Assembly: GCA_037574385.1 (NCBI GenBank)
Contig: GCA_037574385.1_4529.1
Source of the DNA: a phage
Length of the DNA: 64,000 nt
Reading direction: 5' to 3' (one strand)
Positions 263 through 63,862 of the stretch are shown piece by piece (positions within the stretch are counted from its first letter, which is position 1; each line of letters starts with the position of its first letter). A model generated the notes under the pieces. It had not been told where the DNA came from. It worked only from the letters and a program-made list of their open reading frames with translations, and searched no databases. Position numbers and translations under genes: made by a program.

Positions 263-292
263 ATAGTATCACACATCCATGTGTTTGTAAAC
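263..292 (-). promoter_or_regulatory. Early promoter module (PeSL-like): -35 GTTTAC, 18-nt spacer, -10 TACTAT
   Basis: - strand reads GTTTACAAACACATGGATGTGTGATACTATCATCCCATCAACAACATGAGGAAAACGTTATG. Confidence 0.55.
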
Positions 293-2379
293 TATCCTTG
301 GACAAATTTAAACGGAACCGATTCCAAATCCATTAAAGATGCTAACAGTTTCAATCCTTTAGGTGCACTGTTTATTTCTACGAATGAGGCAAAAGATACC
401 GGCTCATCTGATTCGATTTCACCCGTCATAGCAACCACCTCGCCTGTTTCCATGAGAACATCACCGTCGTAAATGACTGCTTCATCCAACTGGTCAGAGG
501 ACATGACTTCGGCTTGAATAAATTTAAGGTTGGATTCTAAACCTGCACCAGTGTCAGATGACGCATCTGTAATTTTATTTATCTGCAAGAGAATGCCTCT
601 AGGCAAAATAATTTCTTGCTCATTAGGGTGATTACTCAACTGTCCTGGATAAATCACGTTAACTTTATGAGCACCATCAATAGCCCATCCAACGTTAACA
701 CGGATTTGTTCTGGTGCATGCATAGCTGTTCTTACTTGACTAGGAGAAATAGTAACACCTTCGTCATTATTGTCAATGTTAAGCTCTTTGCGAACTTCTT
801 CAGGAGCAAGTCCAAGGGCAACGTTTTCTTTAAACCCGCCAAAAATAATAGGAGCTAATGAAGTAGAAACATAGTTTCTGAAGTAGAATACCTTATTTTT
901 AACCATTGCTTCATAAATAGGCATTCTGATAGACTGAGCTCTATACAACGTTAGTCCTTCAGGTAAACGGTCTCCGTTTAAAAACGCTGAATCAAGACCA
1001 TCAATAGCGCGTTTAACTTCATCTTCATCTGCAACATCGTAAAAATCTGGTTTATAACGTCCTAACAACATATTATTGATATCGGTATACGCAGAAGAGG
1101 CATATTCACGAATAGCTCGTTTTTCAGCAACAGAGTATTGTTTAGGGTCCCGATTCATTGTTATATTAAAGGTGCCTCTAGCCGATTCTCGTGCATAAGT
1201 ATACATCACATTAGACAAGAACGCTGATTTACGTTGTTTCCAAGTTTTTTCAGATACTTCAGCTAAAACGTCGTCAGCCAGTTGGAAATTATCTCGTCTA
1301 AAATCTTCAAACCATTCGTCTTTAATAGAGTCTGCAATTTCGTTTGCAGCTTCAACAAAAGCAGCTAATGCTTTAACAGATGTTGTTTTTTCGGTTTTAA
1401 TTTTCTTAGCAAACTTTTCTAAAGTTGGCTTAATAACACTACCATAAGAAACTTCATCAGCAAATCTAAAGGATTCATCAATACGATTATAAATCTTATT
1501 TTCGATATCAGCAACTAAAGTGCCTTTTGCTGTGGATGATGCTTGGGCTAGTACGATTTCATATGCTTCAGGAAGTAATTCGGCTGTAGCTGGGCCACTA
1601 ACTTCTTTAGCAGAATTTTCGTATTTCTGGAATAACTCACCTTCTTGGCGGTCAGCTTCTAAAGATTGGCTTGCTGCAATAGCACGACGAGAAATTTTAG
1701 TATGAGCAATAACAGGCTTATCTTTACGTTTTTCTTCTACAGCAGCAATAGAACCAGCGATAGCAGTTTCTTTGGTGACCGTTTCGCCGGTCTTTTTACT
1801 CACATAAACTTCGCCAACATCAGAATCTACTTTCGTGTACAACTCTGTGTTAATGTTAGGGATGCCTTTAATATCTTCAATGTTGGCATTTTTACGAACC
1901 ATCATCACATAGGTGTGTTTACCTGTGAATTGATACATTGCAGACAATACTTTAAAACGACCACCAGTTTTAGTAGAAACTAAACGAGCAAGAAGAGTTT
2001 GAAGCTGCTGACCACGTCCTTTCAATTTCTTGGTAGGGAATCGGAACAGAACTGCATCCATACGAAGAGCTTTAACCTGTTCATATACTGTATTGAAAAT
2101 GGTGTTGATTGCATCAATAGGAGCAGGACCAAGGCCATTTTTCAATTCAGCGAGATTACCCTTTTCAGACAGACTCATAATAACAACATGAGCATATTTA
2201 TCGCCAAGTTTAACTTGTTTTACAGCGTCGCCTTCAGAAAGGTAAGAGAATAAGCGAACTACGATGTTTGTATCGATATCACCAATTTTCCAGACTTGTG
2301 GAACTTTAGCTTTAGGGTTCAAATTGACGACAGGAAGACTGCCTTCAGATTCAAACACTTCATTTAATTGTTCAGACAT
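292..2379 (-). CDS. alt: Alt-like ADP-ribosyltransferase (packaged internal head protein)
   Basis: 695 aa; size and sequence character match T4 Alt (682 aa); lies immediately downstream of DNA ligase as in T4. Confidence 0.8.
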   Translation of the reverse strand: MSEQLNEVFESEGSLPVVNLNPKAKVPQVWKIGDIDTNIVVRLFSYLSEGDAVKQVKLGDKYAHVVIMSLSEKGNLAELKNGLGPAPIDAINTIFNTVYEQVKALRMDAVLFRFPTKKLKGRGQQLQTLLARLVSTKTGGRFKVLSAMYQFTGKHTYVMMVRKNANIEDIKGIPNINTELYTKVDSDVGEVYVSKKTGETVTKETAIAGSIAAVEEKRKDKPVIAHTKISRRAIAASQSLEADRQEGELFQKYENSAKEVSGPATAELLPEAYEIVLAQASSTAKGTLVADIENKIYNRIDESFRFADEVSYGSVIKPTLEKFAKKIKTEKTTSVKALAAFVEAANEIADSIKDEWFEDFRRDNFQLADDVLAEVSEKTWKQRKSAFLSNVMYTYARESARGTFNITMNRDPKQYSVAEKRAIREYASSAYTDINNMLLGRYKPDFYDVADEDEVKRAIDGLDSAFLNGDRLPEGLTLYRAQSIRMPIYEAMVKNKVFYFRNYVSTSLAPIIFGGFKENVALGLAPEEVRKELNIDNNDEGVTISPSQVRTAMHAPEQIRVNVGWAIDGAHKVNVIYPGQLSNHPNEQEIILPRGILLQINKITDASSDTGAGLESNLKFIQAEVMSSDQLDEAVIYDGDVLMETGEVVAMTGEIESDEPVSFASFVEINSAPKGLKLLASLMDLESVPFKFVQG

Positions 2380-55608: not shown

Positions 55609-56217
55609 TCAGTAACTGACAATAGTCAGATTCCAGATTGTATAATTTCCATCTTGAATAATAGAATCTACACGCAGTGTAGTCCCTATAGGGAGCATAA
55701 ATTCACATTCGTCAGATATAAGTCTAGCATTAGACCGTCTTGTCGCTTCAGGGAAAGCTCCATTGAACTCACAAGACGGCGCAGCCAGAATCATATTAAG
55801 CATATGTTCACGGAAGTTGAAAGCAAATGGTGCATCTTTGATGCAGAACATATTAAATGTTCCATAAAAATTATATGAAGCAAAGTTACGTGCTACACCG
55901 AACACCGGGCTGAAGCTCATTACTCTGTCAAATTTAATAATACTACCAACGCCTTTATCATCAAGTGTGGCCATAGTTTTCTTAGAGATTCCACGATACA
56001 TTGTCTCAGGAACAGAAGACGACCAATTTCTACGAACAATTGCACTTAAATCTTGTTGGATGCTATCAGGCTTGTTTTCCATACACTGCCACAGTATACT
56101 TTGTTCAATGTCGCTGAATTGACTATCAATTTCGTACTGCAATACATCTTGATATTCGGGGTTTTGAGCACGACGAACCATTTCTTCAATTTCACACTCG
56201 TTATACGGCATAAACAT
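55609..56217 (-). CDS. Mod-type ADP-ribosyltransferase (ModA/ModB family)
   Basis: 202 aa (T4 ModA 200 aa, ModB 207 aa); ART R-S-E signature: YRGIS, SFSPVFG, and E-x-E (DECEF). Only one copy is present. Confidence 0.7.
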   Translation of the reverse strand: MFMPYNECEIEEMVRRAQNPEYQDVLQYEIDSQFSDIEQSILWQCMENKPDSIQQDLSAIVRRNWSSSVPETMYRGISKKTMATLDDKGVGSIIKFDRVMSFSPVFGVARNFASYNFYGTFNMFCIKDAPFAFNFREHMLNMILAAPSCEFNGAFPEATRRSNARLISDECEFMLPIGTTLRVDSIIQDGNYTIWNLTIVSY

Positions 56218-56274: not shown

Positions 56275-56409
56275 CTAAAAATTCAACATTTTCAAATGAA
56301 TGATTTTGTATAATCGAGATAAAGGGTCATATTCTAAGTCTTCAATTTCCACAATCTCAAATCTAGAGATACTTGAGACCATGTACTCTTGTTCAGATTG
56401 ACATGTCAT
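56275..56409 (-). CDS. Small protein (44 aa)
   Basis: Hand-called: MTCQSEQEYMVSSISRFEIVEIEDLEYDPLSRLYKIIHLKMLNF; strong SD TGGAGGT and PeSL-type promoter (GTTTAC-N17-TATGAT) directly upstream. Confidence 0.45.
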   Translation of the reverse strand: MTCQSEQEYMVSSISRFEIVEIEDLEYDPLSRLYKIIHLKMLNF

Positions 56410-61105: not shown

Positions 61106-61765
61106 TTAACCTCGATTCATAAATGCATTAAATATTTGGTCATCAACAGAAATTTCTAATTCGACTTCAATTGCTTCAGCCTTTTCTTCAGGTGGTAATT
61201 CGTATCCACACACTACAATTTTTTCATCGATATCAAAATATACAGAAGCAATATGATTAATGTTATTTTCAGTTAAGTCTAAATCAACATCAACATCTTT
61301 TTGACCTACACTTAAAGGATAACTAATACGGGTTATTTTATTATCTTTAACAAAGAGTCCACCAACATACTCTGTACTACGTTTGAAGTTTACACGTTTC
61401 CGAATTGAAAGATATGATGCATCTTTACCGTGAGCTCGGCTCATAGGACATAATGAATAACTAGAATAAGAGATATCAAATCCTACGCCTTCAACATGTG
61501 CCAGAGTATCATGAGTAAACCAATTATAGTCGTATGCCAAATCCATTAAATTATAATATGTGAACGGAACTGGATTAACGTCATACGTTGTACCTTTAAA
61601 ATCTGCCCAGGCAACGATTTCGTTATCTTTAACAATTACAAAAATTACACCAATATGGTATCCGTTATTATTTTCATTCGGCGTTATATTATAACATTGT
61701 GCATTAGGAAATTTACCATATTTAAATGGCGCGTTTTTGTGCATATAATAAATCATATTATTCAC
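61106..61765 (-). CDS. Hypothetical protein
   Basis: 219-aa ORF. Confidence 0.5.
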   Translation of the reverse strand: MNNMIYYMHKNAPFKYGKFPNAQCYNITPNENNNGYHIGVIFVIVKDNEIVAWADFKGTTYDVNPVPFTYYNLMDLAYDYNWFTHDTLAHVEGVGFDISYSSYSLCPMSRAHGKDASYLSIRKRVNFKRSTEYVGGLFVKDNKITRISYPLSVGQKDVDVDLDLTENNINHIASVYFDIDEKIVVCGYELPPEEKAEAIEVELEISVDDQIFNAFMNRG

Positions 61766-62051
61766 CTGTGATTTCGGTTACGATATCTTTGTTATCGAAA
61801 TTAGGGTCACAATACAAAACATAGTTGTACTGCATGATACCGCCAGACTTAAGTTGTTCAACAACTTTATTAACCATATTAGGACGGTCTCGTTTAGTGA
61901 TGTTCATGATATCAGAGAAGATTTGTTGTTCAACATCTTCTTGATTTGCAGTCATTGACCACTCACAGAGGTCTTTATCATAACCTGCTGTAACTGGAGC
62001 TGGTGCACATGATACTGCAAGTAAGATTGCTGCCAATGATAACTTTTTCAT
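61758..62051 (-). CDS. sp: Spackle periplasmic protein (gp5 lysozyme inhibitor, superinfection exclusion)
   Basis: 97 aa, same as T4 Sp; signal peptide; AGYDKDLCEWSMTA, DIMNI.KRDRP, LKSGG.MQYNYVLYCD match T4 Sp. Confidence 0.7.
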   Translation of the reverse strand: MKKLSLAAILLAVSCAPAPVTAGYDKDLCEWSMTANQEDVEQQIFSDIMNITKRDRPNMVNKVVEQLKSGGIMQYNYVLYCDPNFDNKDIVTEITGE

Positions 62052-62114: not shown

Positions 62115-62363
62115 TTATTCTTTTTCGCGAATAATAATTACTTGTTGAGGCTGCTGAGCAGATTTCTTTTCGGCAACGATAGACCAAATTAAAGTTCCAA
62201 TCCAACCAACCATCGTCCAGTTAAAGAGCAAAGATACAAAGAAGATTGCTGTTGTGCTTTTTGTGCCACGAATAAGTGCGATTACCCAAGGCAACATGTA
62301 AATGATGATTGAACCAATACCTGCGATTAAAACTGCTACTGAACTAGCTACGAATAATTCCAT
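62115..62363 (-). CDS. Two-TM inner-membrane protein
   Basis: 82 aa with two long hydrophobic segments and charged C-terminus; directly next to sp. Confidence 0.5.
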   Translation of the reverse strand: MELFVASSVAVLIAGIGSIIIYMLPWVIALIRGTKSTTAIFFVSLLFNWTMVGWIGTLIWSIVAEKKSAQQPQQVIIIREKE

Positions 62364-62424: not shown

Positions 62425-62793
62425 TTAATTAAATTTGTTTAAACGTTCAATACACTGGACGTAGTTATTCGCGATTTGTTTCTGGGTAGGCTCTTTACCA
62501 GTTGTTTCAATATAGCGAATGAATGCGATTTCAGTAGCCTGTAAGCAATGTTCTTTAACGCGTTGTTCTTTTGTCAATGCTACAGTATCAGAATCACGAT
62601 AACGTTGAGCATGGGCATCAGCTTGAATCATTCGATTACCTACAGTAACCGGGTCTTCCACTTCAACTTTAGGTTGGTTGTACTGTTTAACATTCGGGTT
62701 ATAAATCAATTGGCCAACATTATTAGGGATAAAGCCGTGAGCACCACATCCAGTTAATCCGAATACCATTGCTAAAGCGATTAATTTTTTCAT
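62425..62793 (-). CDS. Putative lipoprotein
   Basis: 122 aa; signal peptide with lipobox LTGC. Confidence 0.55.
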   Translation of the reverse strand: MKKLIALAMVFGLTGCGAHGFIPNNVGQLIYNPNVKQYNQPKVEVEDPVTVGNRMIQADAHAQRYRDSDTVALTKEQRVKEHCLQATEIAFIRYIETTGKEPTQKQIANNYVQCIERLNKFN

Positions 62794-62864
62794 TTCAATT
62801 TCCTCTGTAGTTGATAAAAAGATAGTAACACAGTATGTGGTGCTTGTAAACAGTTATTTTAAAA

Positions 62865-63074
62865 TTATCGAAAATCAGCTTCAAAAACTTTCTCGTCATT
62901 AATAAATGCTTTAACAAGTGCACTGTTCACTTCGGCGAGTTGTACCGCAACCCACTCGATTTCTTCACGATCACCTGATAACATGATATCTTTAGTGAAC
63001 ATCTCACCACTTTTAAACCAGCCAATAAAAGTAATTTTAGTTAATTTGCTCATATTTCCTCGCAAAATGCCCAT
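62865..63074 (-). CDS. Hypothetical small protein; weak positional candidate for Dmd (RnlA/LsoA antitoxin)
   Basis: 69-aa tracked ORF (about 62 aa from internal Met MSKLTKITFIGWF); size near T4 Dmd (60 aa) and in the 61-41 interval; identity unverified. Confidence 0.3.
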   Translation of the reverse strand: MGILRGNMSKLTKITFIGWFKSGEMFTKDIMLSGDREEIEWVAVQLAEVNSALVKAFINDEKVFEADFR

Positions 63075-63367
63075 TCAGCGTGATAAACTGTAGCACCTTT
63101 AGTATCGTTCATTTGAACTACGTCTACCGGAGAAATTACTCGATAGAGACGTGGTTCACCTCCATAAGAGCGTGCTGCTCGTCCTGCATAAATCTTTGCT
63201 AAACCGATATCTTCAGTAAAGAATACACGATTCAAGTTTTTCTTACGTCCAGTTTCAGACAGAACTCCTGTTTCTTCAGGAGGACAAAGCATGTTTTCGA
63301 TGTTAGCTGAACTACTTGAACCGTGATAAAAAATCTTAAATTCTGCTTTACAATCGATGGTTTTCAT
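63050..63367 (-). CDS. Hypothetical protein with H-G-S / Y / E pattern
   Basis: 105 aa; FYHGSSS, KIYAG and YHAEW elements occur in the order seen in H-Y-E class ADP-ribosyltransferase folds, but the protein is short; tentative. Confidence 0.4.
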   Translation of the reverse strand: MKTIDCKAEFKIFYHGSSSSANIENMLCPPEETGVLSETGRKKNLNRVFFTEDIGLAKIYAGRAARSYGGEPRLYRVISPVDVVQMNDTKGATVYHAEWAFCEEI

Positions 63368-63422
63368 TTTGTTCTCCAGTAGTTGATAGGTCTATAATAA
63401 CACAACTACTGGAGAAGTAAAC
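63368..63422 (-). promoter_or_regulatory. Early promoter module with 14-bp inverted repeat pairing spacer to SD region
   Basis: GTTTACTTCTCCAGTAGTTGTGTTATTATAGACCTATCAACTACTGGAGAACAAAATG; arms TTCTCCAGTAGTTG / CAACTACTGGAGAA. Confidence 0.5.
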
Positions 63423-63797
63423 TTAAAAACGTAATTTAGATATATCTGCGTTGATTTCGTTTTGGTTTGCGTCGTATGCAATTAAACGAACCGCTTTAGA
63501 TGGGTCATTCAATGCATAGAAATGATGGAACATTGCTCGAACGATATCACCATTTACGAGTTCTACCTGGATAGGAGAACCTTTTTCTAGTTGGAAATGT
63601 TCATAAGCTTTGATGGTTCGCAGATAATCAAGTTTTTGATTTCCGGCTCCAACAATTTGTACGATACGTTTGCCCATGTTTTCCATACGAGATACAATAG
63701 TTTTAGGAGCAAGAATAACGTAGGTTGCCAACGGAGAAACTACTTCAACAGTTGTGTTTTCGGTGATTGCAGTAAAAATTGCTTGAGACATATTCAT
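63423..63797 (-). CDS. Hypothetical protein
   Basis: 124-aa ORF with PeSL-type promoter upstream and UUCG hairpin after the gene 41 stop. Confidence 0.5.
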   Translation of the reverse strand: MNMSQAIFTAITENTTVEVVSPLATYVILAPKTIVSRMENMGKRIVQIVGAGNQKLDYLRTIKAYEHFQLEKGSPIQVELVNGDIVRAMFHHFYALNDPSKAVRLIAYDANQNEINADISKLRF

Positions 63798-63862
63798 AAT
63801 GTTTTCCTCTTGGTTGGTGTAAGTACATCATATCATGCCTAGAGGAAGATGTAAACCCCGAA

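Follow-up and report, generated by a model that had tools for sequence, protein, structure and literature searches.

What does the small gene that lies directly ahead of dmd in an RB69-like phage encode, and does it stand as a further ADP-ribosylation activity beside alt and mod? We addressed this question in a stretch of phage DNA of 64,000 nucleotides (contig GCA_037574385.1_4529.1 of NCBI GenBank assembly GCA_037574385.1; the whole stretch is called the window here), in which an open reading frame (ORF) of 105 amino acids (aa) with an ATG start occupies 63050-63367 of the minus strand (protein sequence MKTIDCKAEFKIFYHGSSSSANIENMLCPPEETGVLSETGRKKNLNRVFFTEDIGLAKIYAGRAARSYGGEPRLYRVISPVDVVQMNDTKGATVYHAEWAFCEEI). 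A first-pass annotation, made from the letters alone, had noted FYHGSSS, KIYAG and YHAEW in its translation, in that order, and had tentatively taken them for the NAD-binding His, the stacking Tyr and the catalytic Glu of a minimal ADP-ribosyltransferase (ART) of the H-Y-E class (PARP/DarT/Tpt1-like); the ORF listing gives exactly this frame and these motifs. Our answer is that the protein is, with a probability of about 0.6, a mono-ADP-ribosyltransferase that uses nicotinamide adenine dinucleotide (NAD+), is made in the first minutes of infection and acts as an effector of takeover or counter-defence by modifying a host component. The NAD+ use, the transfer activity, the timing and the role are the parts of this reading that we infer.

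A genuine gene of the p0068-like family

The window derives from an RB69-like T-even phage of the genus Mosigvirus; over its last 3 kb it shares 98.7% identity with Shigella phage ESh27 and 97.8% with RB69 (megablast). The ORF is a genuine gene and not a chance reading frame, because phrog_2110 (function unassigned in PHROG) aligns with it end to end (E 5e-60), RB69 carries an orthologue (RB69ORF040c, labelled hypothetical protein), and close homologues form 122 clusters at 48-98% identity and are found by tblastn in 610 phage records. Phages of Escherichia (216), Klebsiella (116), Acinetobacter (68) and Aeromonas (62) contribute most of these records, the remainder coming from phages of Enterobacter, Cronobacter, Vibrio and others, and nearly all of the hosts are Gram-negative. 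A few GenBank and UniProt entries, from Pantoea phage Phynn and Acinetobacter phages Konradin, Berthold and ZZ1, already bear the label "(putative) ADP-ribosyl transferase".

The protein of phage ZZ1, ZZ1p0068 (P0151 in our set), is 68% identical to the window protein (E 1e-44, 93% coverage), which places both in one family. ZZ1p0068 gives its name to the "p0068-like" ARTs in the classification of the Aravind group, where the family is among the most frequent viral ARTs, is placed in the H-Y-[EDQ] clade, and is noted to be followed by Dmd in phages of Escherichia, Shigella and Salmonella, an arrangement predicted to be a toxin-antitoxin system (Iyer, Burroughs, Anantharaman & Aravind 2022, Viruses 14:1977). 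The published arrangement is the locus studied here, an early-gene context with Dmd downstream. The family and its pairing with dmd are thus already known as a computational prediction. New here are the lack of a conserved catalytic acid together with a Phe at the position of Arr Tyr49, the restriction of Dmd adjacency to one lineage, and the arrangement of early promoter and hairpin ahead of the gene.

A predicted ART fold related to Arr

AlphaFold2, given an alignment of 150 sequences, folds the protein with a predicted local distance difference test score (pLDDT) of 93.8 and a predicted template modelling score of 0.83. The predicted topology (strand 1 at residues 13-18, a long loop, strand 2 at 48-51, a helix at 54-68, then four strands) contains the split beta-sheet core of ARTs, and the model points to a minimal single-domain ART fold of about 100 residues. 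A Foldseek search of the PDB placed Arr (9iaf) at the top, with Tpt1, cholera and pertussis-like toxins, and ParT ranking next. The BFVD matches comprised members of the p0068-like family, polyvalent proteins, ARTs of Bacillus phage G and two named phage proteins, one of 94 aa labelled rifampin ADP-ribosyl transferase and the other labelled putative RNA 2'-phosphotransferase.

The relationship to Arr is also seen by profile. Direct sequence searches with the single protein gave no match in PDB, NCBIfam or PADLOC, and a 25-sequence profile of close homologues gave none in PDB; Arr was reached only with a profile of 33 diverse domains, which matched Arr-ms (2HW2/9IAF) with E 6.8e-5 and Arr-2 with E 0.002. 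Consistent with this, hhalign gave 96.2% probability for the family profile against Arr-2 (the first 90 residues of the Arr-2 sequence used agree with the Arr-2 alignment from the PDB profile search). The Pfam model Arr-ms (PF12120) matches 5 of 25 family members (best E 2.6e-6) and 28 of 54 multidomain relatives (best E 1.8e-9). These profile matches indicate that the protein is homologous to Arr. Against E. coli KptA, hhalign returned a probability of 4%, so that no relationship to Tpt1 is asserted at the sequence level. Among characterised proteins the closest are Arr, the rifamycin ADP-ribosyltransferase, on grounds of both sequence and structure, and the NAD+-binding lobe of the RNA 2'-phosphotransferase Tpt1/KptA, on grounds of structure only. 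The ART-type fold of the first-pass annotation is borne out, and of the class it had proposed the kinship with Tpt1 survives at the level of structure; the PARP/DarT assignment does not, and Arr is closest.

AcrF11 (PDB 6KYF), an anti-CRISPR mono-ADP-ribosyltransferase with 23% identity to the window protein over the structural alignment, illustrates that a small stand-alone phage ART can also hit a defence protein. T4 Alt, ModA and ModB resemble the predicted role of the window protein, being ARTs that hit host components at the start of infection. They, however, belong to the R-S-E clade (Alt/VIP2 and Mod families), are larger, and show no specific similarity to it; Alt, moreover, is made late and packaged in the virion, unlike the product of the early-type gene studied here.

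Active-site residues

Conservation was assessed in 103 diverse domains (a library clustered at 50% identity) and in 150 T4-like sequences. Invariant or nearly so in these sets are H15, G16, S/T17, P29, P30, T33, E38, R41, K43, N44, F49, T51, A57, Y60, A61, R63, G69, G70, G91 and A100. H15 and G16 are present in 103 of 103 diverse domains, residue 17 is always S or T, and E38 is the sole invariant acidic residue of the family. The HMMER alignment to Arr-ms pairs H15 with His19, F49 with Tyr49, T51 with Thr51 and E38-x-G-R41 with E40-A-G-R43, a loop that is common to Arr and reads E-D-G-R in Arr-2. In Arr, mutation identifies His19, Tyr49 and Asp84 as key residues, Asp84 being catalytic and part of a 100%-conserved D-P-N motif, and the NAD+ site is built from the loop that lies between the first strands (PMC6092378). 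The alignments thus show conservation of a set of residues that resembles an NAD pocket: H15-G-S/T17, E38-x-G-R41, F49-x-T51, Y60 and R63. The His of FYHGSSS was well chosen as the NAD-binding residue.

The other two motifs fared less well. The F49 column holds Phe in 101 of the 103 diverse domains and in all 150 T4-like sequences, so the Tyr of KIYAG, Y60, is not the strand-2 Tyr of the triad, whose position is taken by the invariant Phe. Y60 is nevertheless essentially invariant. It sits on the helix, 11 residues past the strand-2 aromatic, as a second, helix-borne aromatic; Tyr65 of diphtheria toxin and Tyr907 of PARP1 follow the strand-2 aromatic at the same spacing. Y60 may be regarded as a candidate for the aromatic that stacks on nicotinamide. 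The Glu of YHAEW, E98, was rejected as a catalytic residue because it is not conserved: residue 98 is E in only 50 of the 150 close homologues (D in 34, A in 26, S in 15, K in 10, N in 9), and its column in the 103 domains is mostly Pro, Asp or Ser.

No conserved acid was found to replace this Glu. We found no invariant acid past residue 53 in either set; E103 is kept only within the T4-like subfamily. All alignments to Arr end at residue 84-85 of the window protein, and nothing aligns past Arr residue ~83. Ungapped extension past residue 85 puts Arr Asp84 on M86, where the family has only Leu, Ile or Met, and neither the family sequence alignments nor this extension revealed a conserved acid at the place of Asp84. 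The nearest semi-conserved polar pair is N87-D88 (N87 kept in 60% and D88 in 29% of the wide family; N in 100 and D in 118 of the 150 T4-like sequences). Of the H-Y-E triad, then, both the strand-2 Tyr and a conserved C-terminal catalytic Glu are lacking, and the active-site signature of these sequences is best written as H-F-(no conserved acid) plus E-x-G-R plus Tyr60. This departs from the published description of the family as H-Y-[EDQ], in that the Phe is invariant and no conserved E, D or Q was found at the place of Asp84.

Stand-alone and multidomain relatives

A profile search of 1.84 billion representative proteins yielded 253 relatives. Many are stand-alone proteins of ~100-150 aa, the form found in the window; in others the p0068-like domain forms part of larger proteins, the longest of 3924 aa. 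Pfam, applied to 54 multidomain relatives (194-3924 aa), found ART-PolyVal in 8, NUDIX in 3 and DUF7178 in 3, and one case each of lambda-type portal, tape-measure, LPD23, CHAP, 2H phosphoesterase, GNAT, ddrB-ParB and Toprim. Judged by their sequences, these contexts match the hallmarks of virion-delivered polyvalent proteins, which phages and conjugative elements are thought to send in along with their DNA for immediate action on the recipient cell (PMC5512222).

Among individual fusions, P0223 (954 aa) joins the domain to a lambda-type portal and the 2H phosphoesterase, P0173 (1955 aa) joins it to ART-PolyVal and NUDIX, and in P0165 (3735 aa) it adjoins ART-PolyVal. The combination of two ART domains with domains that process ADP-ribose derivatives in polyvalent proteins is a hint of soluble ADP-ribose chemistry. 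Bacteria hardly hold the domain: a narrow back-translated search pattern found four loci in species-representative genomes. One of them, a 70%-identical ART in an assembly of Flagellimonas marina (L058; NZ_JBHSCL010000010.1, 178,077 bp), is encoded on a contig as long as a T4-like phage genome, which is probably of phage or contaminant origin and not bacterial chromosome.

An early-type promoter and a hairpin ahead of the gene

A sigma-70-type promoter resembling T4 early promoters lies directly upstream of the ART gene (Table 1), its -10 hexamer ending 26 nucleotides ahead of the ATG. The element is kept in related phages, where it stands just past the terminator hairpin of gene 41. Of 41 distinct upstream regions, 19 hold a promoter-like site within the 120 nucleotides that precede the ART gene; such sites precede 18% of the other ORFs of these loci and occur in 12.5% of random 120-mers. 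As the 41 regions are mutually related, the comparison lends support but does not amount to a formal test. T4 transcribes its dmd-tifA unit from an early promoter ahead of dmd (PMC9391042); in RB69-type phages the ART gene seems to be interposed between this promoter and dmd. Further sites of the form TTTACA-17-TA..AT with an upstream TG are present before imm.1 (62822-62850, minus strand) and before ORF041c (63827-63855, minus strand), and with these extra sites this short region seems split into several separate early transcription units.

The promoter overlaps a 14-bp RNA hairpin, which none of 200 shuffled sequences matched in folding; the -10 hexamer lies inside the loop and the Shine-Dalgarno sequence in the 3' arm. 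The long stem is specific to RB69-type phages. A transcript from the ART promoter would start at about the 3' arm, leaving the ribosome-binding site free, and in transcripts that read through from ORF041c or gene 41 the hairpin would mask that site. By analogy with known translational control in T4, we infer that translation of the ART may be controlled in this way.

The neighbourhood and the question of Dmd

On the minus strand the gene order is gene 41, ORF041c, the ART gene, dmd, imm.1, imm, sp and AdfA/gp61.2 (Table 1). The presence of alt and mod (here modA) in the window and of dmd next to the ORF, as stated in the first-pass annotation, is confirmed. The ATG of dmd overlaps the ART stop codon as ATGA at 63050-63053, and dmd is thus predicted to be translationally coupled to the ART gene.

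Table 1. Positions of the ART gene, its motifs and control elements, and the neighbouring and related genes in the window
Feature	Position	Strand	Basis or remark
ART-fold coding sequence (p0068-like, RB69 ORF040c orthologue)	63050..63367	-	ORF listing, PHROG, homologues, AlphaFold2, Foldseek, profile search
F13-Y-H15-G-S17-S-S on strand 1 (aa 13-19), H-G-[ST] NAD-binding motif	63311..63331	-	aligned with Arr H19-G-T21
E38-T-G40-R41, long loop between strands 1 and 2	63245..63256	-	conservation; Arr alignment
F49-F50-T51 on strand 2	63215..63223	-	F49 aligned with Arr Tyr49; T51 invariant
K58-I-Y60-A-G (aa 58-62), helix after strand 2	63182..63196	-	Y60 essentially invariant
N87-D88, semi-conserved polar pair nearest the ungapped-extension place of Arr D84-P-N	63104..63109	-	candidate equivalence
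Y95-H-A-E98-W (aa 95-99)	63071..63085	-	E98 not conserved
Sigma-70-type promoter, T4-early-like: (G)TTTACT, 16 nucleotides, TG-TATTAT	63394..63421	-	sequence scan; conserved in relatives
14-bp RNA hairpin, 3' arm holds Shine-Dalgarno GGAG (63374-63377)	63372..63416	-	free energy -21.5 kcal/mol, z -4.97
Gene 41 helicase, 3' end		-	first in order of the minus-strand genes of this region, before ORF041c
ORF041c (124 aa, phrog_10668)	63423-63797	-	directly upstream of the ART gene
dmd (62 aa)	62865..63053	-	Pfam Dmd E 2.6e-19; directly downstream of the ART gene
imm.1	62425-62793	-	
imm	62115-62363	-	
sp	61758-62051	-	
AdfA/gp61.2, anti-DarT factor	61106-61765	-	Pfam AdfA E 6e-120
modA	55609-56217	-	intact, 95.5% identical to RB69 ModA
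alt	292-2379		Pfam ADPrib_exo_Tox E 6e-28

The published prediction makes this pair a type II toxin-antitoxin system, in which the p0068 ART would be a toxin, perhaps acting on RNA, that is bound and neutralized by Dmd (Iyer et al. 2022). Dmd has been proven to inhibit RnlA and LsoA in the manner of an antitoxin, the two genes overlap and share one promoter, and a hairpin that masks the ART ribosome-binding site in read-through transcripts fits tight control of a toxic product. ATGA overlaps, however, are common in T-even early regions, and the distribution of the two genes argues against the pairing. In a sample of 51 distinct IMG/VR loci together with RB69 and the window, every ART that has Dmd next in line is at least 89% identical to the query (L001-L010 and the window). 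In L011-L014 the ART occupies the same slot after gene 41, and what lies downstream is unrelated to dmd: small ORFs for a secreted protein of 188 aa or for acidic, Cys-rich peptides of 41-46 aa. In Pseudotevenvirus-type phages (Klebsiella, Enterobacter, Cronobacter) the ART lies near srd and rnlB and is followed by a hydrophobic protein of 55-60 aa, and in Acinetobacter and Aeromonas phages it is found beside yet other neighbours; some loci of the remaining lineages show no neighbour. Conversely, T4 has dmd directly after gene 41 without an ART. Dmd occurs in 799 phage records, ~573 of them T4-type; the Klebsiella, Acinetobacter and Aeromonas phages that carry the ART are not among the top genera listed for the Dmd search, and the polyvalent-protein versions of the domain have no Dmd partner.

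Both genes are thus widespread without each other, and joint retention across lineages is not seen. With the adjacency confined to one lineage, we rejected an obligate toxin-antitoxin pair; the distribution speaks instead for a shared early transcription unit. The published case of Dmd beside a different, Mod-like ART in some Klebsiella phages (Iyer et al. 2022) keeps the toxin-antitoxin idea alive at a low probability, and we regard it as the foremost of the rival explanations and as unlikely.

Several further features of these loci were noted. Other small genes follow the ART with a 0-nucleotide gap or an ATGA overlap: the Cys-rich acidic peptide of 41-46 aa (CxxC...CxxC) in L012-L014 (4295-4450), and the hydrophobic protein of 55-60 aa in L015-L025 (4315-4490). 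In the window, tifA (gene 61.4, encoding a ToxN inhibitor) is absent from 62794-62864, and imm.1 comes directly after dmd. RB69 carries gp61.4 between dmd and imm.1, and the megablast match to RB69 is split here, with ~205 bp missing; the window phage may, in the absence of tifA, be more sensitive to ToxIN than RB69. ORF041c is a narrow ORFan, with 2 homologue clusters among 5.8 billion proteins, and only RB69-type loci carry it; Pfam, NCBIfam and PADLOC searches gave no family match for its product, and AlphaFold2 fails on it (pLDDT 36). The AdfA gene, whose product counters a host DNA-ADP-ribosylating toxin, lies 1.3 kb from the phage ART-fold gene. Finally, modB is reduced to a 41-residue N-terminal remnant (56278-56400, minus strand, 95% identical), and functional ModB seems to be missing in this phage.

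Discussion

The results are consistent with an effector that would be made immediate-early from its own early-type promoter, together with Dmd, would bind NAD+ and transfer a single ADP-ribose to a host component, and would thereby serve host takeover or counter-defence. An effector role is suggested because the domain occurs in virion-delivered polyvalent proteins and because the neighbours are Dmd, Imm, Sp and AdfA. The locus of the window is one of counter-defence and exclusion genes: Dmd acts against RnlA and LsoA, AdfA against DarT, and Sp and Imm in superinfection exclusion; in T4 and RB69 the same locus also includes TifA, which inhibits ToxN.

Several points weigh against this reading. 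The counter-defence argument is one of guilt by association, the kinship with Tpt1 is structural only (hhalign 4% for KptA), and the window protein itself scores below the Pfam Arr-ms gathering cut-off (13.5 versus 25 bits, E 0.083), although some of its relatives exceed it. Our literature search found no experimental study of the p0068-like family, that is, no member with a demonstrated enzymatic activity, NAD+ binding or target. Most directly, no conserved acid matches Asp84, which is catalytic and 100% conserved in Arr, and the canonical strand-2 Tyr is replaced by Phe, so that the protein could be a binder instead of an enzyme.

Such a catalytically inactive ART fold would bind NAD+ or a molecule derived from ADP-ribose, either soaking up NAD-derived immune signals or serving as decoy for, or inhibitor of, a host defence based on an ART or NADase. 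The strict conservation of the other NAD-pocket residues would fit this, as would the fusions to NUDIX and 2H, processors of ADP-ribose derivatives, and the argument of the 2022 survey that phage ADP-ribose-related domains mostly counter soluble ADP-ribose derivatives. E38 and R41 are, however, invariant, as expected for catalysis, and all characterised close structural neighbours (Arr, Tpt1 and AcrF11) are active transferases. Tpt1-type ARTs, furthermore, work without a catalytic Glu. We therefore rate the inactive binder slightly below the toxin.

The unusual active site also bears on the acceptor of the proposed transferase. It is possible, if clearly a minority view, that the acceptor is something other than a protein, because the family lacks the catalytic acid of protein ARTs, and Arr modifies a small-molecule hydroxyl and Tpt1 an RNA phosphate. 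A more specific and rather speculative version is that the p0068-like proteins form a Glu/Asp-less ART clade, sister to Arr, that modifies a non-protein acceptor early in infection, for instance a small-molecule immune signal or a terminal phosphate on RNA or DNA of the host or the phage, as counter-defence alongside Dmd against abortive-infection toxins of the RNase type.

Overlapping with a non-protein acceptor is the idea of a Tpt1-like RNA-end enzyme, which would ADP-ribosylate or remove a terminal or 2'-phosphate and, with Dmd, repair or protect RNA against host RNase toxins (RnlA, LsoA, ToxN or anticodon nucleases). The fold resembles the NAD+-binding lobe of Tpt1. This lobe, however, is all that is present: the two-lobed Tpt1/KptA enzymes have an N-terminal RNA-binding lobe and an Arg-His-Arg-Arg tetrad, and the phage protein lacks both, besides showing no sequence similarity to KptA. 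The protein is about neutral (14 acidic and 13 basic residues by manual count), and the 2H fusion is a single case. We consider such an enzyme improbable, a little more so than an inactive binder. Least credible by far is a true Arr orthologue that inactivates rifamycin-type antibiotics for the host: Arr is the closest sequence family and Arr genes are reported in some actinophages, but the phage protein, with Phe for Tyr49, is ~40 residues shorter than Arr (PDB 2HW2, 9IAF, 9IBA), its alignment ends at residue 85, the D84-P-N catalytic motif and the C-terminal rifampin-binding region (about Arr residues 87-143, with the contacts S99, G129 and V140) are missing, antibiotic resistance of the host is of little use to a lytic phage, and this candidate was rejected.

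We thus favour an active, early-made ART. At the level of sequence our finding repeats a published computational prediction, and its remaining value is experimental, concerning the target and the involvement of Dmd. Alt, ModA and ModB have made T-even phages the textbook example of viral ADP-ribosylation; here a third, unrelated and much smaller protein with a predicted ART fold stands beside the anti-toxin factor Dmd, uncharacterised and plausible as a counter-defence or takeover factor. Its unusual active site and its kinship with Arr and Tpt1 make a non-protein acceptor possible. If the interpretation of these proteins as a separate clade with such an acceptor is true, they would give T-even-like phages a third ADP-ribosylation activity, one distinct in mechanism.

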